This document shows, in pieces, positions 4,881-19,703 of a DNA stretch of 20,368 nucleotides. Under the pieces are notes generated by a model. It did not search any database. It was not told the DNA's origin and saw only the letters and a program-made list of their open reading frames with translations. Made by a program: the position numbers and the translations under genes. The DNA comes from a virus (taxonomy: Duplodnaviria > Heunggongvirae > Uroviricota > Caudoviricetes): the IMG/VR virus record IMGVR_UViG_2563366803_000006, one strand, 5' to 3'. Each line of letters opens with the position of its first letter. Position 1 is the stretch's first letter.

Positions 4881-5017
4881 AATCTTAACTACAATATGAT
4901 TCATTTTGATGATTGTTTCATAAGGAACAGTGAAGTAAGATCTAAGAGGAGTTAAATTTTATACAGTATAATCATAATATTGCAGCAAGGTGGTTATAAT
5001 TGAAAGAATATTTAGAT

Positions 5018-6475
5018 ATGAATACATCTCATGTAAGAGTTGTTACTCATATGTGTGGGTTCCTGGTTTGGCTCTATAGTCTTTCAATGTTGCCACCAAT
5101 GGTTGTAGCATTGTTTTATAAAGAAAAAAGCCTGTTCGTTTTCTTTATAACTTTCGTTATATTTTTTTGTATTGGTGGCGGAGCGTGGTATACAACTAAG
5201 AAATCTGGCATTCAATTACGTACCCGTGATGGGTTTATTATAATTGTAATGTTTTGGATTTTGTTTTCTGTTATTAGTGCATTCCCTTTATGGATTGACT
5301 CAGAACTTAATTTAACGTTCATTGATGCTCTGTTTGAAGGGGTTTCTGGAATAACAACAACAGGAGCAACTGTAATTGATGATGTTAGTTCATTACCTCG
5401 GGCATATTTGTACTATCGGTCACAGTTAAATTTTATAGGTGGTTTAGGAGTTATTGTTCTGGCGGTTGCTGTATTGCCATTATTGGGTATTGGTGGTGCA
5501 AAGCTTTATCAGTCAGAAATGCCGGGGCCATTTAAGGATGACAAACTCACTCCCCGCCTGGCCGATACGTCACGGACACTGTGGATAACTTATTCTTTAT
5601 TAGGTATTGCTTGTATTGTCTGTTATAGACTTGCAGGAATGCCTTTGTTTGATGCTATTTGTCACGGGATTTCCACAGTTTCGCTTGGTGGTTTCTCAAC
5701 TCATAGCGAGAGTATCGGATATTTTAATAACTATTTGGTTGAGCTGGTGGCTGGTTCTTTTTCCCTGCTATCGGCTTTCAACTTCACTCTTTGGTATATT
5801 GTTATTAGCAGGAAAACGATAAAACCTTTAATCAGAGATATTGAACTTCGTTTCTTTCTGTTAATAGCCTTAGGGGTGATCATTGTTACCTCTTTCCAGG
5901 TCTGGCATATAGGTATGTATGACTTGCATGGAAGTTTTATTCATTCGTTTTTTCTTGCCAGCTCCATGCTCACTGATAATGGTTTAGCTACGCAGGATTA
6001 TGCAAGCTGGCCCACGCACACGATAGTGTTTTTGCTGTTGTCAAGTTTCTTTGGGGGATGTATAGGTTCAACTTGTGGTGGAATTAAGTCACTTCGATTT
6101 CTTATACTTTTCAAACAAAGCAAACACGAGATAAATCAGCTTTCTCATCCCAGAGCGTTGTTGAGTGTAAATGTAGGAGGGAAGATAGTTACAGATCGTG
6201 TAATGAGGTCTGTATGGAGTTTCTTTTTTCTTTATACTCTCTTCACGGTGTTTTTTATACTGGTGTTAAATGGTATGGGATATGATTTTCTTACATCATT
6301 TGCAACAGTGGCTGCATGTATTAATAATATGGGATTAGGTTTTGGGGCTACTGCATCGTCATTCGGAGTGCTTAATGACATTGCAAAATATTTAATGTGC
6401 ATAGCTATGATTCTTGGTCGCCTTGAAATTTATCCTGTTATTATATTGTTTTCAGGTTTTTTTTGGCGCTCCTAA
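5018..6475 (+). CDS. trkG: TrkG/TrkH-family K+ uptake membrane protein (prophage-borne trkG)
   Basis: 485 aa from ATG 5018; multi-pass membrane protein with TrkH-type motifs (GITTTGATV, GIGGAKLYQSEMPGP, GSTCGGIK). Markedly AT-rich coding sequence. Alternative TTG start at 5000 has a better SD (AAGGTGG). Confidence 0.9.
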   Translation: MNTSHVRVVTHMCGFLVWLYSLSMLPPMVVALFYKEKSLFVFFITFVIFFCIGGGAWYTTKKSGIQLRTRDGFIIIVMFWILFSVISAFPLWIDSELNLTFIDALFEGVSGITTTGATVIDDVSSLPRAYLYYRSQLNFIGGLGVIVLAVAVLPLLGIGGAKLYQSEMPGPFKDDKLTPRLADTSRTLWITYSLLGIACIVCYRLAGMPLFDAICHGISTVSLGGFSTHSESIGYFNNYLVELVAGSFSLLSAFNFTLWYIVISRKTIKPLIRDIELRFFLLIALGVIIVTSFQVWHIGMYDLHGSFIHSFFLASSMLTDNGLATQDYASWPTHTIVFLLLSSFFGGCIGSTCGGIKSLRFLILFKQSKHEINQLSHPRALLSVNVGGKIVTDRVMRSVWSFFFLYTLFTVFFILVLNGMGYDFLTSFATVAACINNMGLGFGATASSFGVLNDIAKYLMCIAMILGRLEIYPVIILFSGFFWRS

Positions 6476-6561
6476 TATATGGCTGATTTATAATTGTGAG
6501 TTTAATATTATGTTGACTCACTCATTGATCCAATACTTAACTTTACCAGCAACACCTCCGC

Positions 6562-6597
6562 CCCCAGTAGCACTGGCTGCTGGGGTGCGTTTTATTC
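6562..6597 (+). terminator. Candidate terminator after trkG
   Basis: Inverted repeat CCCCAG (6562-6567) / CTGGGG (6580-6585) with a 12-nt loop, followed by GCGTTTTATT. Confidence 0.3.
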
Positions 6598-6612
6598 ATA
6601 AAGCAAGGATGT

Positions 6613-7404
6613 ATGAGCGAGAAATTAAAGATAGTCTATCGCCCATTACAAGAATTGTCACCGTATGCGCACAACGCCAGGACGCACAGCCCTGAGCAGG
6701 TGGCACAACTGGTAGAAAGTATTAAGCAATTCGGCTGGACTAATCCGGTGCTGATTGACGAAAAGGGCGAAATTATTGCGGGTCACGGTCGTGTTATGGC
6801 GGCTGAAATGCTCAAAATGGATTCTGTTCCGGTCATTGTTCTGTCTGGCCTGACGGATGAGCAGAAAAAGGCGTACCGCCTGGCAGATAATCGCCTGCCG
6901 ATGAATGCTGGCTGGGATGAAGATCTGTTGCGGATGGAGCTGTCGGACCTAATCAATGCTGATTTTGATGTCTCCCTGACAGGCTTCATCCCGACAGAAA
7001 TTGATGAACTGTTGACGGATGTTTTGCCCGGTACAGGAAATGAGGAGGAGCCGTATACGACGAAAATTGATACGCCTGTTTATGAGCCGTCGGGCGGTAA
7101 ACCGGATATCAGTGAACTGTACGACGATACGAAAACGCAGGAGCTGATCAGCCGGATACGTTCGGCTTCCCTTGAGCCTGATATTGAGAAATTCCTCCTG
7201 TGTGCGGCAGAACGTCACACGGTGTTTAATTTCAGCAGAATTGCGGACTATTACGCTCACGCCCCCGCTGAAATTCAGTGTTTTTTCGAGGAGTCGGCGC
7301 TGGTGATCATTGATTATCAGCAGGCTATTGAAAATGGATTTGTCCGGATGACGCAGCGCATGGTGGAGATCATGCATGGTGGTGAGGAGGAGGAATATGC
7401 GTGA
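6613..7404 (+). CDS. ParB-like nuclease (ParB/sulfiredoxin N-terminal) domain protein
   Basis: 263 aa. N-terminal region with ParB-box-like GHGR motif (GEIIAGHGRVMAAEM), acidic C-terminus. SD AAGGA upstream of ATG 6613. Confidence 0.75.
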   Translation: MSEKLKIVYRPLQELSPYAHNARTHSPEQVAQLVESIKQFGWTNPVLIDEKGEIIAGHGRVMAAEMLKMDSVPVIVLSGLTDEQKKAYRLADNRLPMNAGWDEDLLRMELSDLINADFDVSLTGFIPTEIDELLTDVLPGTGNEEEPYTTKIDTPVYEPSGGKPDISELYDDTKTQELISRIRSASLEPDIEKFLLCAAERHTVFNFSRIADYYAHAPAEIQCFFEESALVIIDYQQAIENGFVRMTQRMVEIMHGGEEEEYA

Positions 7405-8329
7405 TGATTTTTGCGCCTTTATTCTGACTCACGGGCGACCGGACAAAGTTCTGACTTACCGGACGTTGCGTCGTGCTGGCTATACCGGGAAAATTTTTAT
7501 CGTTGTTGATGATGAAGATAAGACACGGCATCAGTACATGGCTGAATTTGGTGAACAGGTGCTGGTGTTTTCCAAAACCGATATCGCCAGTCGTTTTGAC
7601 GAAGCCGATAATTTCTGTGACCGCCGCTCAATTTTTTACGCCCGTAATGCCTGTTTCGACCTGGCAAAACTGGTCGGGTGTAAATACTTCATTCAGCTCG
7701 ATGATGATTATCACGAGTTCCAGTTTCGGGTGGATCGCAACTATGACCAGGCCTATTTTCCGATAAGGAAACTGGATGCGATCCTTTCTGAAATGCTGGC
7801 GTACTACGAATCAATACCTGCTCTTTCCATCGCTATGTCGCAGGGCGGGGATTTTCTTGGTGACAATGGCGGCCATGCTTCGTGGGTGAAACGCAAGGCA
7901 ATGAACAGCTTTATCTGTTCGGTTGATCGACCGTTCTCATTCATGGGGCGCATTAACGAGGATGTGAATACGTACACGAATCTCGGTCGCTGTGGTGAAT
8001 TGTTTATGACGATCGGTGCTGTCCAGTTAGGGCAGAAACAGACGCAGAAAAACAGCGGCGGAATGACCGAGCTGTATCTGGATTCCGGAACCTACGTTAA
8101 AAGTTTTTACTCCGTCATGTATGCGCCGTCGTGCGTAAAAATTTCACTGATGGGTGCCAGCCATAAACGCATTCACCATCAGGTCACCTGGAACAACGCT
8201 GCAGTAAAAATCCTTCACGAAAAATACAGGAAGAAGACACCCTGCATATCAATGGGGGTGACAAATGATTCCGTATTCGAAAGTCGAGTCTCTGGCAGCG
8301 TGCCGGATGACTGCACAACAAATCGCTGA
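7397..8329 (+). CDS. Hypothetical protein with GT-A-like nucleotide-sugar transferase signature (DxD-type)
   Basis: ATG 7397 preceded by strong SD GAGGAGGAGGAA and overlapping the ParB-like stop (translational coupling). Alternating beta-strand/acidic pattern (FILTHGRPD, IFIVVDDEDK, YFIQLDDDYHEF). Function inferred only from this pattern. Confidence 0.6.
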   Translation: MRDDFCAFILTHGRPDKVLTYRTLRRAGYTGKIFIVVDDEDKTRHQYMAEFGEQVLVFSKTDIASRFDEADNFCDRRSIFYARNACFDLAKLVGCKYFIQLDDDYHEFQFRVDRNYDQAYFPIRKLDAILSEMLAYYESIPALSIAMSQGGDFLGDNGGHASWVKRKAMNSFICSVDRPFSFMGRINEDVNTYTNLGRCGELFMTIGAVQLGQKQTQKNSGGMTELYLDSGTYVKSFYSVMYAPSCVKISLMGASHKRIHHQVTWNNAAVKILHEKYRKKTPCISMGVTNDSVFESRVSGSVPDDCTTNR

Positions 8330-8516
8330 CGTTCTGGATGTTGATCTGAACCGACTGAAAGAAAATCGGGAAGCAATGACAGATTTTTATGCGGCCATCC
8401 GTAAGGGCAGAGCGAAAGGTGAAGCCGAGTTACGAGCGGCATTGTTTAAGCTTGCCAGAAAAGGGGATGCCTTTGCTCTGCGCGAACTACTCAGGGTGGA
8501 TAAAAATCAGGACTAA
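8307..8516 (+). CDS. Small putative DNA-binding (HTH-like) protein upstream of terS
   Basis: 69 aa MTAQQIADVLDVDLNRLKENRE... helical and basic; start overlaps the upstream gene; stop is 3 nt before the terS ATG and in the same frame. Confidence 0.5.
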   Translation: MTAQQIADVLDVDLNRLKENREAMTDFYAAIRKGRAKGEAELRAALFKLARKGDAFALRELLRVDKNQD

Positions 8517-8519
8517 CTG

Positions 8520-9614
8520 ATGAGCAGACCGGACTGGGGGGCGTTGCAGCAGGAGTATATTGCTGAATACACCCGCTCCGGTATATCTCCGGTGGCATGG
8601 TGTGAAGCAAGGGGACTGAATTACGCAACAGCCCGTCGTTACATCAAAAAAACTCCGAAAAATGCGCAGACAGAAATGCGCAAAACTGCGCAAAAAAGTG
8701 CGCAGAAAAAATCTGCGCAGACTGCACAAAAGCGGAACGAAAAATCTCAGGAAAAAAAGCCAGTATTCGATGCGGGCCTGAATGAGGGCGACGCGGAGGA
8801 ATTTTCGTTCTGTCCCGATGAATTCGGCATTTCTGACCAGCAGGCTAAGTTTGCGATGCTTGTTGCTCAGGGTAAAAAGCCGACAGAGGCGTACCGACTA
8901 GCCGGTTATGAGGGGCAAGGTGCGACAGCTAACAGCAACGCCAGTCGTATGCTTAGAAATGCCAGGGTTTATCGTGCTATCAGCTACTTCCGCAATCAGT
9001 ACCAGAAACGCTATACCGCAGACCTGGATTTACTGGTGAGCCAGTTGATGGTCATTGTCCAGGCCGACCCCAATCAGTTGGCACAATTTCGCCGTGTTAA
9101 CTGCCGTTATTGCTGGGGCGAGAATCATCTCTACCAGTGGCGTGATATTGCAGAATTCGATAAGGCTGCGGCACAGGCCTCCAGAGATGGTAAACCCGAG
9201 CCGGAATATGGAGGCCTCGGCTTTGTTGATAACGCCATACCCAATCCGGATTGCCCGAAGTGCTGCGGTGAGGGAACGGGACAGCTTTATATGGCTGATA
9301 CCACACTGCTTGATGGGGATGCGCGGCAATTATATGCAGGGTCAAAGCTCGGAAAATACGGTGTTGAGATCCTGCTGGAGGATAAGGCTGCCGCCCGGCG
9401 TGAATTGTTGCGTTTGCTTTCTGCTGGCGGGGCATTATGTGCAGATAAGCGGCTACAGGAACTGGAAATTGAACGGCGCAGAATAGAAAACCAGAAGCTG
9501 CACAAAGAGATCGAAACGGTGGAAGATAATGAACATCCCCAGCCTGTGGCGATCAATATTAATGTGGTTGATGCCAGAGTAAGGAGTGATGAAGATGATC
9601 TCTCCGACGCTTAA
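8520..9614 (+). CDS. Terminase small subunit (long form with N-terminal HTH, AQK low-complexity linker, Terminase_2-like core and C-terminal Cys cluster)
   Basis: 364 aa. Core motif AYRLAGYEGQGATANSNASRMLRNARVYRAI typical of small terminase subunits; lies immediately upstream of and overlaps terL; CRYC...CPKCC cysteines at 9102-9266. Confidence 0.7.
   Translation: MSRPDWGALQQEYIAEYTRSGISPVAWCEARGLNYATARRYIKKTPKNAQTEMRKTAQKSAQKKSAQTAQKRNEKSQEKKPVFDAGLNEGDAEEFSFCPDEFGISDQQAKFAMLVAQGKKPTEAYRLAGYEGQGATANSNASRMLRNARVYRAISYFRNQYQKRYTADLDLLVSQLMVIVQADPNQLAQFRRVNCRYCWGENHLYQWRDIAEFDKAAAQASRDGKPEPEYGGLGFVDNAIPNPDCPKCCGEGTGQLYMADTTLLDGDARQLYAGSKLGKYGVEILLEDKAAARRELLRLLSAGGALCADKRLQELEIERRRIENQKLHKEIETVEDNEHPQPVAININVVDARVRSDEDDLSDA
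8663..8728. repeat. Cluster of five TGCGCA hexamers (plus one TGCACA) inside terS
   Basis: Exact TGCGCA at 8663, 8677, 8687, 8699 and 8714, each followed by an A-rich tract; encodes the AQK-repeat linker of TerS. Confidence 0.8.
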
Positions 9615-10896
9615 TGTGCCTCAGGCGCGATTTCTTTCAATGCCCCATAAATTTAAAGCCTATATTGCTGGTTTTGGCTCGGGCAAAACATGGGTTGGGT
9701 GTGGCGGCATATGCAAGGGGATTTGGGAGCATCCAGGTATAAATCAGGGATATTTTGCGCCAACGTATCCCCAAATTCGCGATATTTTTTACCCTACAGT
9801 GGAAGAAGTTGCTGCTGACTGGGGATTGAACGTAAAAATTAATGAGGGAAATAAAGAGGTTCACTTTTATTACGGACGCCAGTATCGGGGAACCACTGTC
9901 TGCAGATCGATGGAGAAGCCACAAACGATCGTCGGTTTCAAAATTGGTAATGCGTTGGTGGATGAACTGGACATTTTGCCGAAGGAAAAAGCCAGAACGG
10001 CGTGGCGCAAGATAATTGCACGTATGCGTTATAAGATTGATGGACTTCGCAACGGTATTGACGTTACAACCACGCCGGAAGGATTCAAATTTGTCTACGA
10101 GCAGTTTGTTAAAGCCGTGCGTGAAAAAACAGAGCTGGCCTCACTGTATGGTCTGGTGCAGGCATCTACTTTCGATAATGAAAAGAACCTGCCAGCAGAT
10201 TACATTCCTTCGCTTCTTGAATCATACCCTCCAGAGCTGATTAAAGCCTATCTTCGAGGACAGTTTACTAACCTGACAAGTGGTACTGTTTACCATCAGT
10301 TTGACCGGAAACTGAATAATTGCGAAGAAGTGGAGCAGCCAGGGGAGCCGATTTATATTGGGATGGATTTTAACGTTGGAAAGATGGCGGGAATCGTCCA
10401 TGTGCTGCGTTTGGGGCTTCCATGTGCGGTAACTGAAATCATCAATGCCTACGATACGCCGGATATGATCCGCATCATTAAAGAACGCTTCTGGCTGTAT
10501 GATGGGAATGATTACCGGAAAGTGAGGGAAATTTATATTTATCCAGATGCTTCCGGGGACTCCAGAAAATCAAGTAACGCAAGTACGACGGATATAGCCC
10601 AGCTTAAGCAGGCTGGTTTTAACGTTGTGGTGAACAGCTCGAACCCGCCAGTAAAAGATCGCGTTAACTCAATGAATGCAATGTTCTGCAATGCCAATGG
10701 TGAGCGTCGCTATAAAGTTAATGTGAAGCGTTGCCCGTTATATGCCGAATCTCTGGAGCAACAGGTCTGGGATGAGAAGGGGGAGCCTGATAAAAAATCT
10801 GGCAATGATCACCCGAATGATGCCGGAGGTTATTTCATCGTTAAGCAATTCCCTATTGTCAAACCGACCGGAAGAGTCACATCACTTCGGATTTAA
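9595..10896 (+). CDS. Terminase large subunit
   Basis: Walker A-like YIAGFGSGKTW near the N-terminus; C-terminal nuclease-like region; SD AAGGAG (9581-9586) 8 nt before ATG 9595. In-frame alternatives at GTG 9586 and ATG 9589. Confidence 0.9.
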   Translation: MISPTLNVPQARFLSMPHKFKAYIAGFGSGKTWVGCGGICKGIWEHPGINQGYFAPTYPQIRDIFYPTVEEVAADWGLNVKINEGNKEVHFYYGRQYRGTTVCRSMEKPQTIVGFKIGNALVDELDILPKEKARTAWRKIIARMRYKIDGLRNGIDVTTTPEGFKFVYEQFVKAVREKTELASLYGLVQASTFDNEKNLPADYIPSLLESYPPELIKAYLRGQFTNLTSGTVYHQFDRKLNNCEEVEQPGEPIYIGMDFNVGKMAGIVHVLRLGLPCAVTEIINAYDTPDMIRIIKERFWLYDGNDYRKVREIYIYPDASGDSRKSSNASTTDIAQLKQAGFNVVVNSSNPPVKDRVNSMNAMFCNANGERRYKVNVKRCPLYAESLEQQVWDEKGEPDKKSGNDHPNDAGGYFIVKQFPIVKPTGRVTSLRI

Positions 10897-10898
10897 TT

Positions 10899-12305
10899 AT
10901 GGCTGATATATCAACACCCAACCTCGACTATAACGATATGCTGGAGGCGTGGGATATTAACGACGCACTGATGGGCGGTACGCTTGAAATGCGCAGGCAG
11001 GGGGAAAATTATCTCCCAAAATGGCCTAACGAAGATGAAGACGCTTATAAAAAACGCCTGTCTGTGGCTACGCTACTTCCTGTGTATGAAGAAAGCATCA
11101 AGCAAAATATTGGGCGCATATTTGCAGAGCCGACAGTATTGAGTGAGGAAACGCCGGCAAAAATCAGGGAATATGCAGAAAATATCGACATGGAGGGGAG
11201 CCGACTGGATGTGTGGGCGCAGCAATTTTTCAGCCTCGCATTTCAGTATGGTGTGGCACATGCGCTGGTGGACTATCCACGAACGGATATGAAAGAGATT
11301 CGGACAAAAGCCGATGAAAACGCGACCGGTGGTCGTCCGTACGTTACGATGCTGAATCCACGCCAGGTTATTGGATGGAAATCGAAAGTTGAAAAAGGGA
11401 AAGTTGTTCTCACTGATTTGCGTATAAAAGAGGTCATCATTATTGATGGTGATGATTTCGGGCAGAAGAAGGTGGAGCAGATCCGCCATATTATGCCCCG
11501 TCGAGTTGAAATTTATCGACGTAGCGAAGGCACTAATGGCGAATCTGTCTGGACGCTTCATGAGTCATGGAATACCAGCCGTGATGATATTCCTCTGGTA
11601 ACACTGTACACGAAGAAAACAGGATTTATGCGTGGTACACCGCCATTGCTTAATCTTGGCTTGCTGAATATCAAGCACTGGCAAAGCCAGAGCGAGCAGG
11701 ACAATATTCTTCATGTTGCCCGCGTTCCATTGCTGGTGGCCTACGGGCTGGACAGGAATGAAGAACTGACGGTTGGTGCATCCACCGCTACGATTTTTGA
11801 GGACAGAACAAAAAATGGCCTCGAATATGTTGAACATAGTGGCGCAGCGATAGAATCTGGCGAAACATCACTTGAGAAGCTGGAAAATCAGATGCGTCAT
11901 GCCGGCGCTAAACTTCTGCGTGCTGAAAATACATCCACCAAATCTGTTGATCAGACTAATGAAGAGCGAATGCAGGAAAACTCGCCGCTTTATACAATGG
12001 CGAACTCCCTCGAAGATGCCCTCGATAATATTCTCCAGATAATGGCGGAATGGATCGGAGAGAGTTGCGGTGGCAATGTGGATGTGCGCACTGAACTGGA
12101 TGTATCTGCCCAGGTGTTTGACTCATCCTCCGCGCTGGCTGTTCAGTCATTGCGTCAGGGCGGTGATATACGTCAGATTGATGCGGTTCGGGTGTTGCAG
12201 GCGTTGAAATTTATCGATCAGGATTCCCGTCCAGAGGAAGTGATCGATGAATTAAAAAATCAGAGTGTAATGCTGATGGAAATCAATGATGCAAACCGTG
12301 AATGA
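10899..12305 (+). CDS. Portal protein
   Basis: 468 aa, directly downstream of terL; size and position in the terS-terL-portal order typical of portal proteins. Confidence 0.8.
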   Translation: MADISTPNLDYNDMLEAWDINDALMGGTLEMRRQGENYLPKWPNEDEDAYKKRLSVATLLPVYEESIKQNIGRIFAEPTVLSEETPAKIREYAENIDMEGSRLDVWAQQFFSLAFQYGVAHALVDYPRTDMKEIRTKADENATGGRPYVTMLNPRQVIGWKSKVEKGKVVLTDLRIKEVIIIDGDDFGQKKVEQIRHIMPRRVEIYRRSEGTNGESVWTLHESWNTSRDDIPLVTLYTKKTGFMRGTPPLLNLGLLNIKHWQSQSEQDNILHVARVPLLVAYGLDRNEELTVGASTATIFEDRTKNGLEYVEHSGAAIESGETSLEKLENQMRHAGAKLLRAENTSTKSVDQTNEERMQENSPLYTMANSLEDALDNILQIMAEWIGESCGGNVDVRTELDVSAQVFDSSSALAVQSLRQGGDIRQIDAVRVLQALKFIDQDSRPEEVIDELKNQSVMLMEINDANRE

Positions 12306-13401
12306 ACGGCTGCGTGATGAATCAATTGCTCATGCAGTCTGGATATCCCGCTATAGCACTGGCGTGGCTGCCAGAATGGTGAAAATACTGAATGACAGCG
12401 ATGCGGAACTTACTGCTCGCCTGCTGATAGCACTGGACAGCCTCGATCCAGGTAGTTTTACCGTTAAGCGCCTGGAGTCACTTCTGGCGAGCGTCAGAGA
12501 GGTTAACCGCACTGCTATTAACAGCATGTTTACCAGTCTCTCCGGAGAGCTGAACGAGCTGGCAATTTATGAGGCTGGTTATCAGTTAAGTCTGTTTGAT
12601 TCTATGCTACCTGATTTTGTTGCTGATGTTCACCCTCTGGTTGGTATCTCTCCTGATGCACTTTATGCCGCTGCAATGGCGCGACCATTCCAGGGACGAC
12701 TGCTCAGTGAGTGGGCCTCAGATCTTGAGGCGGATCGGCTCAGACGCATAACAAATACAGTGCGTCAGGGTTTTTTGCTGGGGGATACCAATGAGCAGAT
12801 CGCAAGAAAAATTCGGGGACATGTCAGTAAGGGATTTCAGGATGGTGCATTGCAGATGAGCCGGGCTAATGCGGCCAGCATTGCAAAAACAGCGGTTGGA
12901 CATCTTGCTGCTACTGCCCGTGAGAGTTTTGCCAGCGCGAATAATGATTTGATTAAGGGTAAGCAATGGTTATCAACGCTTGATAATCGTACTACGCCAC
13001 AATGTCGAATCAGGGATCGCCTCAAATATACGCTGAATAATAAACCTGTAGGTCACAGCGTGCCTTATTTGCAGGGGCCGGGAAAAATTCATTTCTGCTG
13101 CCGCTCAACGGAAACGTTCATTCTGAAATCAGCGAAGGAACTGGGTATTGATGTTCGCGATATTTCCCCGGCTGAGCGGGCCAGCATGGATGGCGTGGTG
13201 GCCGGAGATACAACCTACAGGGAATGGTTTTTGCGTCAGCCTTACACCAGACAAAAACAGATTGTGGGGGAAACCCGAGCAAAGCTGATTCGGGATGGTG
13301 GTATGTCGCCAGATGAATTTTACACCGATAAAGGCGAATGGCTGACGCTGAAGCAGCTCCGTGAGCGTGATGCACAGGTATTCAGAAAAGCAGGGATTTA
13401 A
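12286..13401 (+). CDS. Head morphogenesis / minor head protein (SPP1 gp7 / Mu F-like position)
   Basis: 371 aa, overlaps the portal 3' end by 20 nt; called mainly from gene order (portal, then minor head protein, then scaffold, then capsid). Confidence 0.55.
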   Translation: MMQTVNERLRDESIAHAVWISRYSTGVAARMVKILNDSDAELTARLLIALDSLDPGSFTVKRLESLLASVREVNRTAINSMFTSLSGELNELAIYEAGYQLSLFDSMLPDFVADVHPLVGISPDALYAAAMARPFQGRLLSEWASDLEADRLRRITNTVRQGFLLGDTNEQIARKIRGHVSKGFQDGALQMSRANAASIAKTAVGHLAATARESFASANNDLIKGKQWLSTLDNRTTPQCRIRDRLKYTLNNKPVGHSVPYLQGPGKIHFCCRSTETFILKSAKELGIDVRDISPAERASMDGVVAGDTTYREWFLRQPYTRQKQIVGETRAKLIRDGGMSPDEFYTDKGEWLTLKQLRERDAQVFRKAGI

Positions 13402-13420
13402 ATAAATCATTTATTACAAC

Positions 13421-13447
13421 AGGCTACCTTCGGGTGGCCTTTTTTAT
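13421..13447 (+). terminator. Intrinsic terminator between head morphogenesis and scaffold genes
   Basis: Hairpin AGGCTACC-TTCG-GGTGGCCT (one G-U pair, TTCG tetraloop) followed by TTTTTTATT. Confidence 0.7.
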
Positions 13448-13505
13448 TGCTGCGATCCGGATGGTGAGCAGCGTAACTGTCGGAAGACTTAAACCAGGTA
13501 CTAAT

Positions 13506-14270
13506 ATGAAACTGAAAACGGTCGAGATTAACGGAAAACAATACGCAGAAATTGATACTGCTGGCCTGCCAGTTTATGTGCACGACGATGGTAAAGAAAT
13601 TGGCTTCGATGCACCGCTGGCGACAAAAAAAATTACAGAGCTTAATGGCGAGGCAAAAAATCATCGCCTGGCTAAAGAAGCTGCAGAGGAAAAACTGGCT
13701 AAGTTTGCCGCTATCGAAGACCCGAAGAAGGCGATCGAGGCACTGGAAATGCTGTCAAAAATCGACCAGAAAAAGCTGCTCGATGCGGGACAGGTTGACC
13801 AGGTTAAGGCAGAAATTACGAAAAATTTTCAGCAGCAATTAGATGAAGAAAAGCAACGCTCTCAGATGCTGGAGAAGCAGCTTTACGATTCTATGATTGG
13901 CGGTAGTTTTGCGGGTTCAAAATATATTGCCGATAAAATTGCGATCCCGGCAGATTTATTACAAGCCCGCTTCGGGCAGGCATTCAAAGTGGAAGAAGGG
14001 AGGATCGTTGCTTATGACGCTTCCGGCAACAAAATTTATTCCCGCGCGAAGCCTGGCGAACTGGCGCAGTTTGATGAGGCGCTGGAGTTCCTTGTCGAAA
14101 ATTACCCTCAGAAAGACTACATCCTGAAAGCCAGTGGCAACAATGGCGGCGGCTCCCGTCCGACACAGCATGATATTGGTCAGAAAACGATGAAACGCTC
14201 TGCTTTTGATGCACTGGATGTTGCAGGTAAGCAAAACGCATTGAAAGACGGTATCACAATCGTTGATTAA
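13506..14270 (+). CDS. Scaffolding protein (putative)
   Basis: About 254 aa from ATG 13506 (MKLKTVEINGK...), highly charged and helical; lies between the head morphogenesis and capsid genes. The ORF-track start at 13434 overlaps the terminator hairpin and is less likely. Confidence 0.55.
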   Translation: MKLKTVEINGKQYAEIDTAGLPVYVHDDGKEIGFDAPLATKKITELNGEAKNHRLAKEAAEEKLAKFAAIEDPKKAIEALEMLSKIDQKKLLDAGQVDQVKAEITKNFQQQLDEEKQRSQMLEKQLYDSMIGGSFAGSKYIADKIAIPADLLQARFGQAFKVEEGRIVAYDASGNKIYSRAKPGELAQFDEALEFLVENYPQKDYILKASGNNGGGSRPTQHDIGQKTMKRSAFDALDVAGKQNALKDGITIVD

Positions 14271-14368
14271 CACATTTGTCAGCTTCCGGATGGGAGCTGG
14301 TGTCAGGGCTGGATAGCTCATTACTCCATCTATTCACAATTACGCAAATTTTTAAGGAATATTTAATT

Positions 14369-15508
14369 ATGGCTGGAAATACCCTGACCGGGTTGATCCC
14401 GACTATTTATACCGCCCTGGATGTTGTATCCCGTGAGCAGGTAGGTTTTATCCCTGCGGTAGCAAAAAACGCAAAAGCTGACGCCGCAGCAAAAGATCAG
14501 ACGGTAACCGCGCCAGTTGCGCCTGAGGCGAAAACCGAAGATATCGTACCGGGGCCGTCAGCTCCGAATACCGGTGATCAAAATATTGGCACTGTTGATG
14601 TAAAAATTACTAAATCCAAAATGGCACCGGTTAAATGGAATGGTGAAGAACAACTGGCTCTTGGCCCTTCAGGGACTTACAACACCATTCTGGCTGATCA
14701 GTTCAAGCAGGCTTTTCGCGCCCTTGCAAACGAGGTTGAGGCTGATCTTGGTGCGTTGTATTTCGGTGCTTCCCGCGCCGTGGGAACCGCAGGGACAACG
14801 CCGTTTGGTGTTAAAGATGATCTTTCTGATGCTGCTCTGGCTCGTCAGGTTCTGGAGGATAACGGCGCACCGACAACCGATCTGCAGATGGTGCTTGGCT
14901 CCACTGCCATTGCTAATTTGCGCGGAAAACAGTCTGTATTGTTTAAAGTGAATGAATCCGGCACTGAACAGCTACTGCGTGAGGGCGTGTTGGGGCGTCT
15001 GGAGGGATTCAATATTCACAGTTCGGCAGGTGTGAAACGAGCGCCAAAGGTTGCTGCAACTGGTTATCTCGTGAATGGAGAGAAAAAAGAAGGCGATGTT
15101 CTTATTTCCATTGATACTGGTTCGGGGAGTATTTCTGCAGGTCAGATTGTTACGTTCGCTGGTGATCCGAATCAGTATGTTGTGGCAGCAGCGACCAGCA
15201 ATCTGATTACTCTTGCAGCGCCCGGACTGCGTCAGGATCTGGCCGATGATACTGCCATCACAGTTGTTGGGGCCTTTACTGCAAATATGGCGTTTGATCG
15301 CAACGCGTTTCTGCTGGCATCCCGTACTCCGGCAATGCCGGAAGGTGGCGATAATGCTGATGATGTAATGAATGTTACGGACCCGATTTCAGGGATTACG
15401 TTCCAGATTGCACTGTATCGTCAGTATCGCCAGGTGCGCTATGAAGTTGGACTGGCATGGGGTGTTTCATCAGTGAAGCCGGCACATGGTTGTCTGATTC
15501 TTGGTTAA
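14369..15508 (+). CDS. Major capsid protein (putative)
   Basis: About 379 aa from ATG 14369 (SD AAGGAA upstream), MAGNTLTGLIPTIYTALDVV...; position after scaffold and followed by a terminator; size typical of a major capsid protein. Confidence 0.7.
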   Translation: MAGNTLTGLIPTIYTALDVVSREQVGFIPAVAKNAKADAAAKDQTVTAPVAPEAKTEDIVPGPSAPNTGDQNIGTVDVKITKSKMAPVKWNGEEQLALGPSGTYNTILADQFKQAFRALANEVEADLGALYFGASRAVGTAGTTPFGVKDDLSDAALARQVLEDNGAPTTDLQMVLGSTAIANLRGKQSVLFKVNESGTEQLLREGVLGRLEGFNIHSSAGVKRAPKVAATGYLVNGEKKEGDVLISIDTGSGSISAGQIVTFAGDPNQYVVAAATSNLITLAAPGLRQDLADDTAITVVGAFTANMAFDRNAFLLASRTPAMPEGGDNADDVMNVTDPISGITFQIALYRQYRQVRYEVGLAWGVSSVKPAHGCLILG

Positions 15509-15518
15509 ACATTCAAAC

Positions 15519-15538
15519 GGGGCTTCGGCCCCATTTTT
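15519..15538 (+). terminator. Intrinsic terminator after the capsid gene
   Basis: Hairpin GGGGC-TTCG-GCCCC followed by ATTTTTAA, 11 nt after the capsid stop. Confidence 0.65.
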
Positions 15539-15550
15539 AATGGGGGGCAT

Positions 15551-15727
15551 ATGGCCGGATTAACTAAAGAGCAAAGAGCACAGCGTGAAGCCGCACAAAA
15601 AACGCAAATTGAGTTAGTGGTTATGGTGACCGATTATCAGATGTTTCCCGGCGCACCAACTATCGCTAATGTTCATCCTGATGAAGTTGACAACTGGAAG
15701 GCTATGGGCTGGAAAACTCAGGAGTAA
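15551..15727 (+). CDS. Small hypothetical protein (58 aa) between capsid and connector genes
   Basis: ATG 15551 preceded by a G-rich tract; stop TAA 15725-15727 lies 3 nt before the next gene's ATG. Product MAGLTKEQRAQREAAQKTQIELVVMVTDYQMFPGAPTIANVHPDEVDNWKAMGWKTQE. Below the length cutoff of the supplied ORF track. Confidence 0.4.
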   Translation: MAGLTKEQRAQREAAQKTQIELVVMVTDYQMFPGAPTIANVHPDEVDNWKAMGWKTQE

Positions 15728-15730
15728 CAC

Positions 15731-16126
15731 ATGATCACTTACGTGACCTGTGATGACGTTGATAATGCGTTTGGGAACGCCTGGACGAGTGAGAACGCTA
15801 AAAATAAAGCTGTTTTAATGGCTAATGCCTGGCTTAATGGCTTCAACCTGAAAATTAACCCATCCCGTATTCCGGAAGAGGTAAAACTTGCGGGAGCATA
15901 TGCAGCCAGAATTGCCTCATTCGGTAAGTTGTTTCAGCAGAAAAATGATTCTGGCGTTGTTATCAGTAAAGCCGTGTCGGCTGACGGGGTCAGTGTATCG
16001 AAATCATTTTCTGAGTTGCCAGCAAACAGCACTGCATTGCTTGAACCCGATTTACAGCTTGCGATAGCACTGCTGAAACCGTACGGACTTAGTCGCTCAC
16101 AAGTCAGGGTTGTGAGGGGGGGATAA
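15731..16126 (+). CDS. Head-tail connector/adaptor protein (gp6-like, putative)
   Basis: 131 aa, SD AGGAG upstream; first gene after the capsid in a run of four small tightly packed genes. Confidence 0.5.
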   Translation: MITYVTCDDVDNAFGNAWTSENAKNKAVLMANAWLNGFNLKINPSRIPEEVKLAGAYAARIASFGKLFQQKNDSGVVISKAVSADGVSVSKSFSELPANSTALLEPDLQLAIALLKPYGLSRSQVRVVRGG

Positions 16127-16509
16127 TGGGGCTTCGTGAAGAGATTCAGTCAGAGGTTGCCGCTGCTTTTGATGAGGATTTAGCGGACGCCGTGAGTGAT
16201 TTTTCTGGTTCTTACGTTACGCACCGGCACTGGGATCCTGTGACGGAAACTGGCGGCGAATCCACCGCAATCTATACCGGGCGAGGCGTGTTGACACGTT
16301 ATAAGCTGGGCAGAATTGATGGGATTAATATTTTGCATGGTGACCTTAAATTAACCGCTCTGGTATGCGAGGTTACGGATAAACCAGCTGTCGACCATAT
16401 TATTGAGATTTATGATCCTGTATCAAGGCAGTTACAACGATACGAGGTAATTACAGCAAGTGTAGATCCTTCCGCATCAGTTTACTCTATCCAGTTAAGG
16501 AGAGCGTAA
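16126..16509 (+). CDS. Head-tail joining / head closure protein (putative)
   Basis: 127 aa; start overlaps the previous stop (TAATGG); called from position. Confidence 0.45.
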   Translation: MGLREEIQSEVAAAFDEDLADAVSDFSGSYVTHRHWDPVTETGGESTAIYTGRGVLTRYKLGRIDGINILHGDLKLTALVCEVTDKPAVDHIIEIYDPVSRQLQRYEVITASVDPSASVYSIQLRRA

Positions 16510-16890
16510 ATGGCAAAGGCATGGGATATAGAACCGTCAATATTTGCCGGGATGATTGAGGAAGATGTAGGGCTGAAGATTCGCTACATCGCTATGCAGA
16601 TTCTTACTGCTATTGATATTGCTGCTCCGGTTGATACCGGACGTTTCAGAAATAACAACCTGGTGTCGTTACAGCATCCCGATTTTGGTATATCTGATAA
16701 CGTGGATCCGAACGGTACGATTGCTGTTCAGCGTGGGATCGGGGTTATTTCGAAAGCTGCAAATTACGGGGTTATTTATATCCAGAATAACCTTCCTTAT
16801 GCAGAGGCTCTTGAAAACGGTCATTCACAACAAGCGCCAACTGGCGTGTATGCCAACGCTTTTCATGGTGTTTTACAGGCTTACAAATGA
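16510..16890 (+). CDS. Neck/tail component, HK97 gp10-like (putative)
   Basis: 126 aa; position and size; gp10-like assignment is recalled family resemblance, not a search result. Confidence 0.5.
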   Translation: MAKAWDIEPSIFAGMIEEDVGLKIRYIAMQILTAIDIAAPVDTGRFRNNNLVSLQHPDFGISDNVDPNGTIAVQRGIGVISKAANYGVIYIQNNLPYAEALENGHSQQAPTGVYANAFHGVLQAYK

Positions 16891-17279
16891 AGTTTACTGA
16901 AATCAGAAATACGGTTATTTCCAGAATGACGGCACAGACGATTATTGATGGAAAAGACGTATTGTATCCGAACGGGCCAACGTTCGATCCTTCCGGTAAG
17001 TTAATCTGGGCGCGGTTAAGTAATATTCCCGGGCAGGCTGGAGTTAATGAAATTGGCGCGGGGCCGGTTGTTTATCGCACGGGGATAATCATTATTCAGT
17101 TATTTGTCCCCGCAGGTTCTGGTTCAAAACTCATTACTGAGACAGCCGATAAATTGCGGGAACTGTTTGAGTTTCAGGATGACGATCGTCTCAGTTACCA
17201 GGCTGTTTCCTCAATAGCCGTCGGCGAAAAGAATGGCTGGTTCCAGCTTAATCTTCAAATTCCATATCGCGCGCTCTAG
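16887..17279 (+). CDS. Tail completion / tail terminator protein (putative)
   Basis: 130 aa; ATGA start-stop overlap with the previous gene; immediately upstream of the major tail protein gene. Confidence 0.45.
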   Translation: MKFTEIRNTVISRMTAQTIIDGKDVLYPNGPTFDPSGKLIWARLSNIPGQAGVNEIGAGPVVYRTGIIIIQLFVPAGSGSKLITETADKLRELFEFQDDDRLSYQAVSSIAVGEKNGWFQLNLQIPYRAL

Positions 17280-17305
17280 CGCAATTAATGACATAGGAGG
17301 CTCCT

Positions 17306-18268
17306 GTGAGTTCAGGTGCAAAGGTTATCTCGGCATTTATCCGGGAGACGGTTGCAGGCACTACGCCAGCAAGTGGTGACTGGAGTTTATTAAAACGCAC
17401 AAGCTGGGGAGTAAAACCCACCCAGAATAAAGGCGAAAATAATGAGATTGGTGGCTCCCGGATGGCTCAGGGGGCGACGCCTGGCACTGTGGATGTCGGC
17501 GGTGATGTTGGTACCAAATTTCGCTGGGGTCAACATGATGATTTTCTTGCATCCTGTTTCGGCGCGGAATGGTCAGGCGATTCTCTGACAATGGGGAATG
17601 AGCGAATAACATTTTCTCTGGCGACCTATGCGTCCGATGTCGGAATTGCCTCTGTCGTCAGAGGAGCGCAGGTTGGCTCATGGAAAATGCAGATCCCTAA
17701 CGACGGCGATATTACAGCGACCGTAACCTTTGCCGGACTGGACTGGGAATCAAAGGCCGATGATACGAATTTTATCAAAGGCGAACCTGTGGATAGTGCA
17801 GGAAAGCTACGTTATTCGTTTAAGGAGGTTTCAGCAGTAAGCCTGAATGGTGTTGCCGGAGGTAACGGTTTTTGTATCGACAGTTTTGATATTCAGTTCG
17901 ATAACAAACTCCAGACACAGCGTTGTATCGGGACTGGCTCGCCTTATGCAGGAGCAAATATTCCGACTACTTTTACACCGTCCGGTACGGTGACGCTTTC
18001 ATGGTCTAAAGCCGCGTGGGAAATCTGGAGTAAAACACTGACTGGAGAAACAGTTCCGTTCAGCTTCACGCTTTCGAATGGAGAGGGGGCATACACTTTC
18101 AGTTTCCCGAAGGTTCAGGTGTCAGGTGAATGGCCTGATGGGGGTAATAGCGACATTATCCAGGTTCAATTGAGCATTACCGCAGCAGATGAAGCACCTA
18201 CGATAACCAGAAAAAAAAATTCCCCGGCTGCCGTGATCGCAAAAGCCAGTGCTGAGGCGATTAGTTGA
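17306..18268 (+). CDS. Major tail (tube) protein (putative)
   Basis: 320 aa from GTG 17306 with strong SD AGGAGG upstream; lies immediately before the tail assembly chaperone with frameshift site, as expected for a siphovirus-type tail tube gene. Confidence 0.55.
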   Translation: MSSGAKVISAFIRETVAGTTPASGDWSLLKRTSWGVKPTQNKGENNEIGGSRMAQGATPGTVDVGGDVGTKFRWGQHDDFLASCFGAEWSGDSLTMGNERITFSLATYASDVGIASVVRGAQVGSWKMQIPNDGDITATVTFAGLDWESKADDTNFIKGEPVDSAGKLRYSFKEVSAVSLNGVAGGNGFCIDSFDIQFDNKLQTQRCIGTGSPYAGANIPTTFTPSGTVTLSWSKAAWEIWSKTLTGETVPFSFTLSNGEGAYTFSFPKVQVSGEWPDGGNSDIIQVQLSITAADEAPTITRKKNSPAAVIAKASAEAIS

Positions 18269-18316
18269 TTTTCCGTTATTCCTCCTGTGGTACTGCCCTA
18301 CAGGGGGACGCATTGA

Positions 18317-18778
18317 ATGAGGTTATGGATGTTTATTCTTAATCAGAAAATTATCATTGGTGGAGAACGCTGGTTTACGCCAATGAAGGACTTAAAACCT
18401 GTAGACGGGTTAAAACTGTTGGTGGCAAGCAGCGATAACGATCAGTATCGCTCCCGTAATGCATTAATCCGTCGCCACATTGAGAAAATGGATGCCAGTT
18501 TGCACGTCGGAACGAAGGAGTTTGATATTTCAAAGGTTTCCGAGGTGGATTCTGTTGATGATTTACTCATTGATAATGCCGCTCGTTATCTGCTGAAAGA
18601 CTGGAAAGGGGTTGGTGAACTGGTTAATGGTGTTGAGGTTGCACTGGAATATACGGCAGAACGAGGGATCGCGCTGCTCAAGCAGAATCCAGAGTTGTAC
18701 TGGCAGATCCTTGCAGAAGCAGCCAGCATCGCCCAGGGTAAAGAGCAGCAGAAGCAGGATACGATAAAAAAGCCATAG
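18317..18778 (+). CDS. Tail assembly chaperone (gpG-like)
   Basis: 153-codon ORF ending ...TIKKP with slippery heptamer A_AAA_AAG (18766-18772) 4 nt before the stop. In-frame alternative starts at 18329 and 18383. Confidence 0.6.
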   Translation: MRLWMFILNQKIIIGGERWFTPMKDLKPVDGLKLLVASSDNDQYRSRNALIRRHIEKMDASLHVGTKEFDISKVSEVDSVDDLLIDNAARYLLKDWKGVGELVNGVEVALEYTAERGIALLKQNPELYWQILAEAASIAQGKEQQKQDTIKKP

Positions 18779-18935
18779 CTGCCCAGCGGTGGTTATCGGA
18801 GTTCGGGGGAGAAAGGGGGGAAAAGGCAAGATGGAAGCGAGAAAAACTCAGGTTGCCACCGATACCGGAACCAGAAATAGACCCGGTGCTTAAGGAGTTG
18901 TTGTACGCCTATTCGGTAATATCCCGTGCCCGACG
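18766..18935 (+). pseudogene. -1 programmed frameshift extension of the tail assembly chaperone (gpGT-like), truncated by IS1 copy 2
   Basis: From the slippery site the -1 frame is open for about 55 codons (KKAIAAQRWLSEFGGERGEKARWKREKLRLPPIPEPEIDPVLKELLYAYSVISRARR) right up to the IS1 boundary at 18935. Confidence 0.55.
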
Positions 18936-18990
18936 GGTGATGCTGCCAACTTACTGATTTAGTGTATGATGGTGTTTTTGAGGTGCTCCA

Positions 18991-19266
18991 GTGGCTTCTG
19001 TTTCTATCAGCTGTCCCTCCTGTTCAGCTACTGACGGGGTGGTGCGTAACGGCAAAAGCACCGCCGGACATCAGCGCTATCTCTGCTCTCACTGCCGTAA
19101 AACATGGCAACTGCAGTTCACTTACACCGCTTCTCAACCCGGTACGCACCAGAAAATCATAGATATGGCCATGAATGGCGTTGGATGCCGGGCAACAGCC
19201 CGCATTATGGGCGTTGGCCTCAACACGATTTTACGTCACTTAAAAAACTCAGGCCGCAGTCGGTAA
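18991..19266 (+). CDS. insA: IS1 InsA
   Basis: 91-aa product identical to copy 1 InsA; both nucleotide differences are synonymous in this frame. Confidence 0.95.
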
Positions 19267-19688
19267 CCTCGCGCATACAGCCGGGCAGTGACGTCATCGT
19301 CTGCGCGGAAATGGACGAACAGTGGGGCTATGTCGGGGCTAAATCGCGCCAGCGCTGGCTGTTTTACGCGTATGACAGGCTCCGGAAGACGGTTGTTGCG
19401 CACGTATTCGGTGAACGCACTATGGCGACGCTGGGGCGTCTTATGAGCCTGCTGTCACCCTTTGACGTGGTGATATGGATGACGGATGGCTGGCCGCTGT
19501 ATGAATCCCGCCTGAAGGGAAAGCTGCACGTAATCAGCAAGCGATATACGCAGCGAATTGAGCGGCATAACCTGAATCTGAGGCAGCACCTGGCACGGCT
19601 GGGACGGAAGTCGCTGTCGTTTTCAAAATCGGTGGAGCTGCATGACAAAGTCATCGGGCATTATCTGAACATAAAACACTATCAATAA
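19185..19688 (+). CDS. insB: IS1 InsB frame (InsAB' by -1 frameshift)
   Basis: Corresponds to copy 1 coordinates 1215-1718; A6C motif at 19242-19248. In this copy the B frame stays open further upstream (to 19104) because TGA is replaced by AGA. Confidence 0.9.
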
Positions 19689-19703
19689 GTTGGAGTCATT
19701 ACC

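Follow-up and report, generated by a model that had tools for sequence, protein, structure and literature searches.

A conserved small gene between the capsid and head–tail adaptor genes of an IS1-disrupted prophage, and a tentative case for a gpFI-like role

A 58-codon gene lies between the capsid and connector genes

The open reading frame that runs on the plus strand from an ATG at position 15551 to a TAA at 15725–15727 of the window (the whole 20,368-nucleotide stretch of DNA analysed) is almost certainly a genuine phage gene of the expressed type that belongs to the head-assembly module. Its 58 codons were read from the sequence and translated as the protein MAGLTKEQRAQREAAQKTQIELVVMVTDYQMFPGAPTIANVHPDEVDNWKAMGWKTQE. 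The gene is already known, being catalogued in PHROG 1514, RefSeq and GenBank as a hypothetical protein, and the main value of recognising it here is that the open reading frame track of the window is corrected. As for what the product does, a role comparable to that of the lambda packaging chaperone gpFI is put forward below as a tentative proposal. The features of the region are listed here.

14369..15508, plus strand: major capsid protein gene (phrog_283, P22-coat-like), the constant upstream partner
15519..15539, plus strand: terminator-like hairpin GGGGC-TTCG-GCCCC followed by ATTTTTA, between the capsid stop codon and the small gene
15542..15547, plus strand: Shine-Dalgarno-like run GGGGGG, 3 nt 5' of the ATG; GGAGG there in relatives
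15551..15727, plus strand: small protein-coding gene, 58 aa plus stop, a member of PHROG 1514
15551..15595, plus strand: N-terminal module MAGLTKEQRAQREAA, codons 1–15, near-invariant, with a predicted helix at residues 6–13
15596..15613, plus strand: linker remnant QKTQIE, codons 16–21, among the shortest linkers of the family
15614..15724, plus strand: C-terminal globular domain, codons 22–58, conserved; a putative capsid-docking module
15731..16126, plus strand: head–tail adaptor Ad1 gene (phrog_493), the downstream neighbour, whose family differs among relatives

A sequence-only reading of this DNA had described a 58-codon frame opening at 15551 and ending 3 nt before the next start codon. 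These coordinates are correct: the trinucleotide CAC is all that separates the small gene from the ATG of the downstream gene at 15731, and 42 nt lie between the end of the capsid gene at 15508 and the small open reading frame. The frame's absence from the supplied track had been put down to its length, which fits a product of 58 residues and the usual cut-off of 60, and the description of a tightly packed head-module gene between capsid and connector genes is borne out by the phrog_283 and phrog_493 flanks. The upstream gene encodes the major head protein, with matches to phrog_283 (E 2e-136) and to Pfam P22_CoatProtein; its start at 14369 follows the PGAP annotation in relatives, the mechanically derived frame beginning with a TTG at 14276. 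The module has an SPP1-like order, in which the genes for the portal (10899–12305), a MuF-like head morphogenesis protein (12286–13401) and a DUF6651 scaffold-like protein (13434–14270) are followed by those for the capsid protein, the small protein, Ad1, Hc1, Neck1/tail completion, the tail terminator and the tail tube.

Positions 6300–18935 of the window are collinear at 99.4% with Escherichia phage vB_EcoS-666R9, the record of which is a Rac-like element with trkG, a ParB-like gene and ydaY. Two direct repeats of 769 bp, which have IS1-type ends and differ from each other at 2 positions, are found at 965–1733 and 18935–19703. The second of these ends the homology just past the ydaY-like gene, and the tape-measure and tail-tip genes do not follow it; for this reason the window copy is assigned to an IS1-disrupted, probably defective prophage. 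An identical copy of the small gene is present in a Shigella flexneri chromosome, and the viable lambdoid phage HK639 carries the gene as HK639_07.

The reading frame is conserved as protein and belongs to PHROG 1514

The full length of the protein was matched by PHROG 1514 (labelled 'unknown function'), with residues 1–58 aligned to profile positions 1–58 of 58 (E 3.5e-43, 146.5 bits). The frame had been called unlisted, which is so for the supplied track but not for the databases: beyond PHROGs, ten GenBank 'phage' records that are nearly identical to one another carry the gene with the label hypothetical protein, and PGAP labels it in E. coli chromosomes as hypothetical protein WP_000908084.1 of RefSeq. 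The window protein was taken as identical to WP_000908084.1 because a 281-nt query spanning the whole open reading frame matched the record at 100%. Of 5426 complete E. coli genomes, 761 (14%) contain this query, 710 of them at an identity of at least 99%. Homologues fall into 416 clusters at 90% identity in the protein search and 492 clusters at 50% identity in the profile search (E up to 1e-3), and they come from HK639, Klebsiella phages, beta-proteobacterial and Nitrospinota prophages, and cyanophages. The HK639 homologue (gp07, YP_004934037.1) occupies the same genome place and is 62% identical in protein sequence to the window copy; apart from the short linker, nothing substantive separates the window copy from PHROG 1514, WP_000908084.1 and HK639 gp07. 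With its presence in about one in seven complete E. coli genomes, about 490 clusters at 50% identity and a tie to one capsid family, this is a common uncharacterised small protein.

Substitution patterns were compared over 29 loci. In the frame of the gene, pN/pS amounts to 0.134 for codons 1–15 and 0.40 for the C-terminal 34 codons, while the same DNA gives values of 1.2–2.1 in the two other frames. The synonymous sites are near saturation (pS 0.62–0.65), and the combination of a pN/pS of 0.134 with a pS of 0.65 in the N-terminal block therefore indicates conservation at the protein level. Judged from these ratios, purifying selection acts in the frame of the gene only. The comparison of synonymous and non-synonymous change in relatives, which had been suggested earlier as a way to check the frame, is thus positive for both parts of the protein. 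The start codon is fixed by the conserved N-terminal Met-Ala-Gly-Leu-Thr, and a Shine-Dalgarno sequence is found 5' of the ATG, as GGAGG in relatives and as GGGGGG in the window.

Architecture of the protein family

Alignments were made from 120 homologues and then from 44 further ones, and the architecture of the family was surveyed in 144 representatives at 50% identity, 132 of which contain the core motif. According to the alignments and a structural model, the protein is composed of an N-terminal helix, a variable linker and a C-terminal domain of 37 residues.

Enterobacteria show hardly any variation in the N-terminal peptide MAGLTKEQRAQR(E/A)A, with M1, A2, L4, T5, Q8, R9, A10 and R12 invariant among 63 sequences. 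The same peptide is found in Methyloversatilis, Pandoraea, Variovorax and another betaproteobacterial prophage, and it also opens an otherwise unrelated Runella protein of 168 aa. In an AlphaFold2 model calculated with the family alignment, residues 6–13 form a helix at pLDDT 57–62, and because of this low confidence the module is probably flexible or folds on a partner. The N-terminus is basic in 54% of the family representatives; a generally basic N-terminus was therefore dropped as a family-wide argument.

The linker is rich in glutamine and glutamate, ranges from 0 to about 150 aa across the family and is net negative in 79% of the representatives. It is absent or nearly so in the forms of 57–61 aa (those of the window, HK639 and Atlantibacter) and 16 residues longer in the E. 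coli forms of 74 aa. QQEQ tandem repeats extend the linker to about 150 aa in a protein from an Enterobacter hormaechei locus (L029), whose total of 197 aa is the upper end of the range for relatives, most of which have 70–82 aa; the window protein is the short-linker form of 58 aa.

The C-terminal domain has the consensus LVxMVTDxxxFPGAPTxAxVHPDEVxNWKAxGW within its 37 residues, with M25, P36, A39, V41, H42, P43, E45, V46, N48, W49 and W54 invariant. It is predicted by the same AlphaFold2 procedure as a strand, a long loop, a second strand, a helix and a third strand at pLDDT 93–95. The domain stands at the C-terminal end in 97 representatives and at the N-terminal end, with a C-terminal extension, in 21. 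A few representatives carry it twice, it also occurs alone, and some relatives have basic tails.

In 9 of the 144 representatives the phrog_1514 domain is followed by an acidic linker and then a tail of the form LsxxELRaxAkexGIxf....a.kLiaxI. Compared by hhalign, this tail matches the HeH domain in ORF60 of Pasteurella phage Pm86 with a probability of 94.9% and an E of 4e-8; the ORF60 domain was itself verified with Pfam at 34.1 bits against a cut-off of 28.9. Pm86 ORF60 and an Acinetobacter qsb1 protein noted as 'LEM-like' occupy the same slot after the phrog_283 capsid gene in phages without phrog_1514. Small HeH/LEM proteins of this kind (Pm86 ORF60, qsb1; phrog_1539, 1772 and 2101) and the small protein thus share the slot between capsid and adaptor genes, but the window protein has no HeH motif and no match to the HeH profile (PF12949). 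The notion that its N-terminal helix is half of an HeH motif is unsupported, as the hhalign probability between the alignment A1 and that of the HeH tails (A4) is 0.08%. The N-terminal part of Pm86 ORF60 was considered as a homologue of the C-terminal domain; the two stretches (VHQSTLSEHESLGW and VHPDEVDNWKAMGW) are suggestive by eye, with a non-significant hhalign probability of 0.85%.

The window protein has no match in Pfam, even at E 10, or in NCBIfam, and a profile search of PDB sequences returned none. Foldseek identified no significant structural neighbour with known function in the PDB (best E 3.3), and in the BFVD it returned family members only, such as a 97-aa homologue from Me-ZS1. 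As regards the capsid protein, no solved capsid with a homologous protein was found with phmmer, and the profile search gave weak matches to 8e16 and 8zdh only. No proteomics, mutant or functional data on any member were found in the literature on HK639, Me-ZS1 and HeH proteins; the proteome paper on YongM concerns an unrelated myovirus.

The small gene travels with the capsid gene

A homologue is located between a P22-coat-type capsid gene and the first connector gene in HK639 and in Klebsiella phage ST405-OXA48phi1.3, and the same slot is used in Flyfo siphovirus Tbat2_3 and Microcystis phage Me-ZS1. In ORF maps of 13 more distant loci, a capsid-sized frame (about 380 aa) immediately precedes the small gene in 12 cases. 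The upstream gene was assigned to phrog_283 in prophages of Methyloversatilis (L037), Nitrospinota (L041) and Variovorax (L046). The downstream family changes from phrog_477 (Ad1) in L037 and L046 to phrog_82 (Hc1) in L041 and phrog_493 in the window. With the upstream partner constant and the downstream one exchanged, the small gene thus moves together with the shell gene and not with the connector, and the mosaic boundary falls after the small gene.

The 42 nt between the capsid stop codon and the small gene contain, upstream of the Shine-Dalgarno sequence, the hairpin GGGGCTTCGGCCCC with a stem of 5 bp and a UUCG loop, followed by a run of T. The same hairpin is found in nearly all of the 29 loci; stems that are longer or different occur in Photorhabdus (GGGGGATTAACCCCC), Betaproteobacteria (CCGGGGCCTTCGGGTCCCGG) and Pandoraea (GCCGGGGCGTAAGCCCCGGC). 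We infer a hairpin of the usual kind, a terminator or an mRNA stabiliser at the end of a very highly expressed capsid gene; it would place the small gene in a lower-expression group with the connector genes. The size of such an effect is uncertain in lambdoid late transcription under antitermination (Q or put).

A possible analogue of the packaging chaperone gpFI

The product of the small gene may be a non-homologous analogue of lambda gpFI, a reading that we advance tentatively and that has, in our judgement, a substantial but minority chance of being correct. In lambda gpFI, the N-terminal part is reportedly helical, and a flexible linker joins it to a C-terminal domain through which gpFI binds the major head protein. 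The gene for gpFI stands between the capsid gene and the head-completion gene FII in the order E – FI – FII, which corresponds to the slot of the small gene between the major capsid and connector genes. Both proteins are small and acidic, with a helical N-terminal part and a small C-terminal domain. In addition, each group has members associated with SAP/HeH-like motifs: the first 41 residues of gpFI (MTKDELIARLRSLGEQLNRDVSLTGTKEELALRVAEL) give weak signals of this type (Pfam SAP, E 0.0018), and the HeH-tail alignment A4 compared with gpFI gives an hhalign E of 0.005 at a probability of 7%. The likeness does not extend to homology. The alignment A1 compared with gpFI has an hhalign probability of 0.4%, the small protein matches neither of the gpFI families (PF14000 and phrog_92), no fold match was found to the gpFI C-terminal domain (PDB code: 2lsm), and the small protein is less than half the size (58 versus 132 aa). 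It is also paired with a different capsid family, the P22-coat-like phrog_283 rather than lambda gpE. Since position, size class and domain grammar resemble those of gpFI and sequence and fold do not, a non-homologous analogue is proposed. The involvement of gpFI itself in DNA packaging is taken from Popovic et al. 2012, as quoted in PMC4493119.

Given that the small gene keeps strictly to one capsid family, the folded C-terminal domain may bind the phrog_283 capsid protein, and in the proposed mechanism it would dock on this protein in the procapsid. The other end, which is the N-terminal helix here and a DNA-binding-type HeH motif in some relatives, would contact the DNA–terminase complex or DNA. 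The small protein could in this way be a non-structural accessory through which the procapsid and the packaging machinery meet. The hairpin would set the expression of the small gene and the connector genes below that of the capsid protein. A linker that is free to vary from 0 to about 150 aa implies that there is no fixed spacing between the ends, as would be expected of a tether or recruiter more than of a protein that cements a lattice. An assembly or packaging accessory outside the virion fits the architecture at least as well as does a virion component, which is what the 'small head protein' of the sequence-only reading would be. Further points count against the analogy with gpFI. The pairing with HeH is a minority architecture (9 of 144), the window protein itself has no such motif and an N-terminal helix unrelated to HeH, and the small gene lies in a disrupted and probably defective prophage.

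In a broader form of the proposal, the phrog_1514 domain would be a new capsid-docking fold to which swappable modules (the MAGLTKEQRA helix, HeH and basic tails) are joined through elastic acidic linkers. Such proteins would be widespread 'post-capsid-gene adaptors' that do the job of gpFI, the coupling of procapsid, DNA and terminase, in P22-coat-type siphophages from Enterobacteria to cyanobacteria, and the partner bound by the N-terminal peptide, which is identical across phyla, would be one that is universally conserved. This wider picture is in our view unlikely to hold.

If the small protein is an analogue of gpFI with an unrelated fold, packaging chaperones would be a general and repeatedly invented feature of tailed-phage assembly, and the 37-aa domain could be a compact handle for capsid display. 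The family is of mild interest to specialists in phage assembly, as a large one with no Pfam entry or structural neighbour that is tied to one capsid lineage across phyla. Its N-terminal peptide is identical between distant hosts, its linker is among the most length-variable in phage structural modules, and an HeH partner module is common to the family and to the proteins that replace it in sister phages. Together, these features make a testable case for a gpFI-like role.

Decoration and head-completion roles

The main rival to a gpFI analogue is a capsid decoration or accessory protein that is kept in the virion, with its C-terminal domain on the exterior of the mature shell and the linker and N-terminal helix projecting as a stabiliser, an anti-aggregation 'bristle' or an adhesin-like tip. 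Such a role is possible, if on the unlikely side. It would account for the strict linkage to one capsid protein family, and hypervariable repeat linkers are typical of exposed regions. Scaffold-type shells that are made without a prohead protease often need extra stabilisation; in this phage a scaffold is present and no prohead protease was identified. The positional counterpart in qsb1 is noted in its record as 'structural protein', which is an annotation only. A precedent for a decoration gene in this position is provided by JBD30, in which gp39, with a disordered N-terminal part and a small beta-rich domain, is encoded right after the capsid gene gp38 (PMC11445458).

The likeness of the small protein to decoration proteins such as JBD30 gp39, the T4 Soc beta-tadpole and lambda gpD lies in small size, in adjacency to the capsid gene for JBD30 gp39, and in a disordered N-terminal part joined to a small sheet-and-helix domain, which for the small protein is that of the model. 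The differences are that its folded domain has only 37 aa, that its linker is hypervariable and that a hairpin separates its gene from the capsid gene. No fold or sequence similarity was found to gpD, Soc/beta-tadpole or Dec, nor any structural match in the PDB to a solved decoration protein. The terminator-like hairpin argues against the synthesis of the small protein in equimolar amounts with the capsid protein, with the reservation about antitermination given above. Linkers of 0–150 aa and pairing with HeH-type motifs are hard to reconcile with the cementing of a lattice, and an N-terminal peptide that is identical across phyla is unexpected in an adhesin for host surfaces. Were the protein nevertheless to decorate the capsid, its length-variable Q/E linker would be a natural display spacer.

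A low-copy head-completion, internal or DNA-associated protein, for example one that sits at the portal vertex or on packaged DNA and is made at connector-like levels, would be in keeping with a gene that, like the connector genes, is located downstream of the hairpin and that stops 3 nt from the start of Ad1. The basic tails or HeH motifs of some relatives could bind DNA. We consider this role improbable, as the small gene stays with the capsid gene when connector families are swapped, a strongly acidic linker is unfavourable beside packaged DNA, and the protein has no similarity to known connector, plug or ejection proteins.

Readings based on the hairpin, on read-through and on an accessory gene

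That hairpin and gene are conserved as a pair in nearly all loci, and that basic residues are spaced along one face of the N-terminal helix, could point to a small RNA-binding regulator. The basic face (K6, R9 and R12) would bind the hairpin RNA GGGGCUUCGGCCCC and so tune late-gene termination, mRNA stability or translation. This is very unlikely. Hairpins are common after capsid genes with high expression, the folding energy of this one alone is unexceptional (z -1.06), it has no match in Rfam, and the near-invariance of its stem leaves little covariation. Members that lack the N-terminal motif keep a hairpin at the same position, and the helix has four basic residues only, with an equal number of acidic ones.

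The small frame is in frame with the capsid gene in the window, where the TAA at 15506–15508 is the sole stop codon and 14 codons intervene, and 20 of the 29 loci are in frame, which invites the idea of a C-terminal capsid extension made by stop-codon read-through. As a conserved mode of expression this is refuted by the frame statistics, with 9 of the 29 loci out of frame, and as an explanation of the gene it is extremely improbable. A single T more or less in the T-run switches the frame between two E. coli loci that are otherwise nearly identical (L008 and L009), several in-frame loci (L012, L004 and L046) have two consecutive stops, and the conserved Shine-Dalgarno sequence and initiator methionine show independent initiation. 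In the window, read-through would add 58 residues to the capsid protein.

The sequence-only reading had also raised the possibility of a moron, an accessory gene for the lysogen; this, or an untranslated chance frame, might be thought of in view of the small size, the terminator-like hairpin on one side and the lack of a known function, and it can hardly be right. No promoter-like site was found on the plus strand between 14000 and 17000, the GC content of 0.47 is that of the neighbourhood (0.44–0.54), and the position beside the capsid gene is kept from Enterobacteria to Betaproteobacteria, Nitrospinota and cyanophages, from which we conclude that the gene is not a moron. The in-frame purifying selection and the presence of the gene in a viable phage, as HK639_07, are likewise at odds with an accessory or chance origin.

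Modular variation of the small protein

The enterobacterial form of the N-terminal module of the small protein (codons 1–15) was encountered outside the family, and the linker (codons 16–21) was found to vary in length among homologues. The two loci are:
L047:3001-3507, Runella salmonicolor (Bacteroidota), 168-aa protein starting with the enterobacterial N-terminal module
L029:2527-3120, Enterobacter hormaechei, small-gene homologue with an expanded linker

The Runella protein opens with MAGLTKEQRAQRAAEKS, the same residues as in the enterobacterial module, and the remainder of its chain is unrelated in sequence to the small protein. Its neighbours gave no PHROG or Pfam match. The occurrence of an identical peptide at the start of an otherwise unrelated protein suggests that the N-terminal peptide is an independent, transferable module. 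In the Enterobacter homologue, as in those of loci L024, L026, L028, L033 and L034, the linker is lengthened by tandem QQEQ or QQDQ repeats to as many as ~150 residues, giving total lengths of up to 197 aa versus 58 aa in the window. Judged from these sequences, the length polymorphism of the linker is extreme and repeat-driven, within a gene of the head module.

The C-domain (codons 22–58) carries the motif MVTD...FPGAP..A.VHPDEV. Similar repeats, five in number and of the form CxxC...M.TDITTLTG.FG.AE.HP.CV, are present in P0162, a SAM-domain protein of 588 aa that is eukaryotic in appearance, but there they include Cys and His residues resembling zinc ligands. The betaproteobacterial variants at loci L043 and L046 have VHPTCV..H in the C-domain. 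The phage C-domain might descend from the same stock as treble-clef or LIM-like fingers and lack the zinc; alternatively, the likeness to the P0162 repeats may be a convergent match.

The entire small protein is also found fused in frame to the first ~165 residues of a ParB-like protein in a single database protein, P0123 (223 aa). The counterparts of its two halves in the window are:
6613-7404, ParB-like gene
15551-15727, + strand, small gene

From this arrangement, the fusion appears to have arisen in a Rac-like prophage through deletion of the entire terminase-to-capsid region.

Neighbouring genes and their annotation

Read mechanically, the capsid ORF opens with TTG 14276 (410 aa), and its PHROG alignment begins at residue 34; both this alignment and PGAP favour a start at ATG 14369 (379 aa, MAGNTLTGLIP...). 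Within window positions 15506-15553 the capsid gene and the small ORF share a frame, the capsid TAA being the sole intervening stop; this was shown to be a coincidence, one that relatives do not conserve.

Relatives of the downstream Ad1 head-tail adaptor gene (window 15731-16126) in RefSeq, such as L007:1752-2147, are named 'protein singed' by PGAP in some E. coli (WP_370612440.1) and 'hypothetical protein' in other E. coli genomes. The former name looks like a propagated misannotation. Two further genes are:
12286-13401, MuF-like head morphogenesis gene (phrog_241, Pfam Phage_Mu_F)
5000-6475, trkG-like potassium uptake gene, within the prophage and upstream of the ParB-like gene

GenBank ON470614 labels the MuF-like gene 'NAD+--asparagine ADP-ribosyltransferase'. 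The placement of the trkG-like gene, trkG being a classic cargo gene, matches Rac and has no relation to the small-gene finding.

IS1-type repeats and the state of the prophage

Two 769-bp elements lie in direct orientation relative to each other:
965-1733, element with IS1-type ends, copy 1
18935-19703, element with IS1-type ends, copy 2

The elements begin at one end with GGTGATGCTGCC and finish at the other with GGAGTCATTACC, contain ORFs of InsA/InsB size, and differ from each other at 2 positions. Together they flank ~17.2 kb of prophage in a composite transposon-like arrangement. Homology to the intact relative vB_EcoS-666R9, an Escherichia phage, ends exactly at the second copy (18935), so that the tape-measure and tail-tip genes are absent and the prophage is probably defective.
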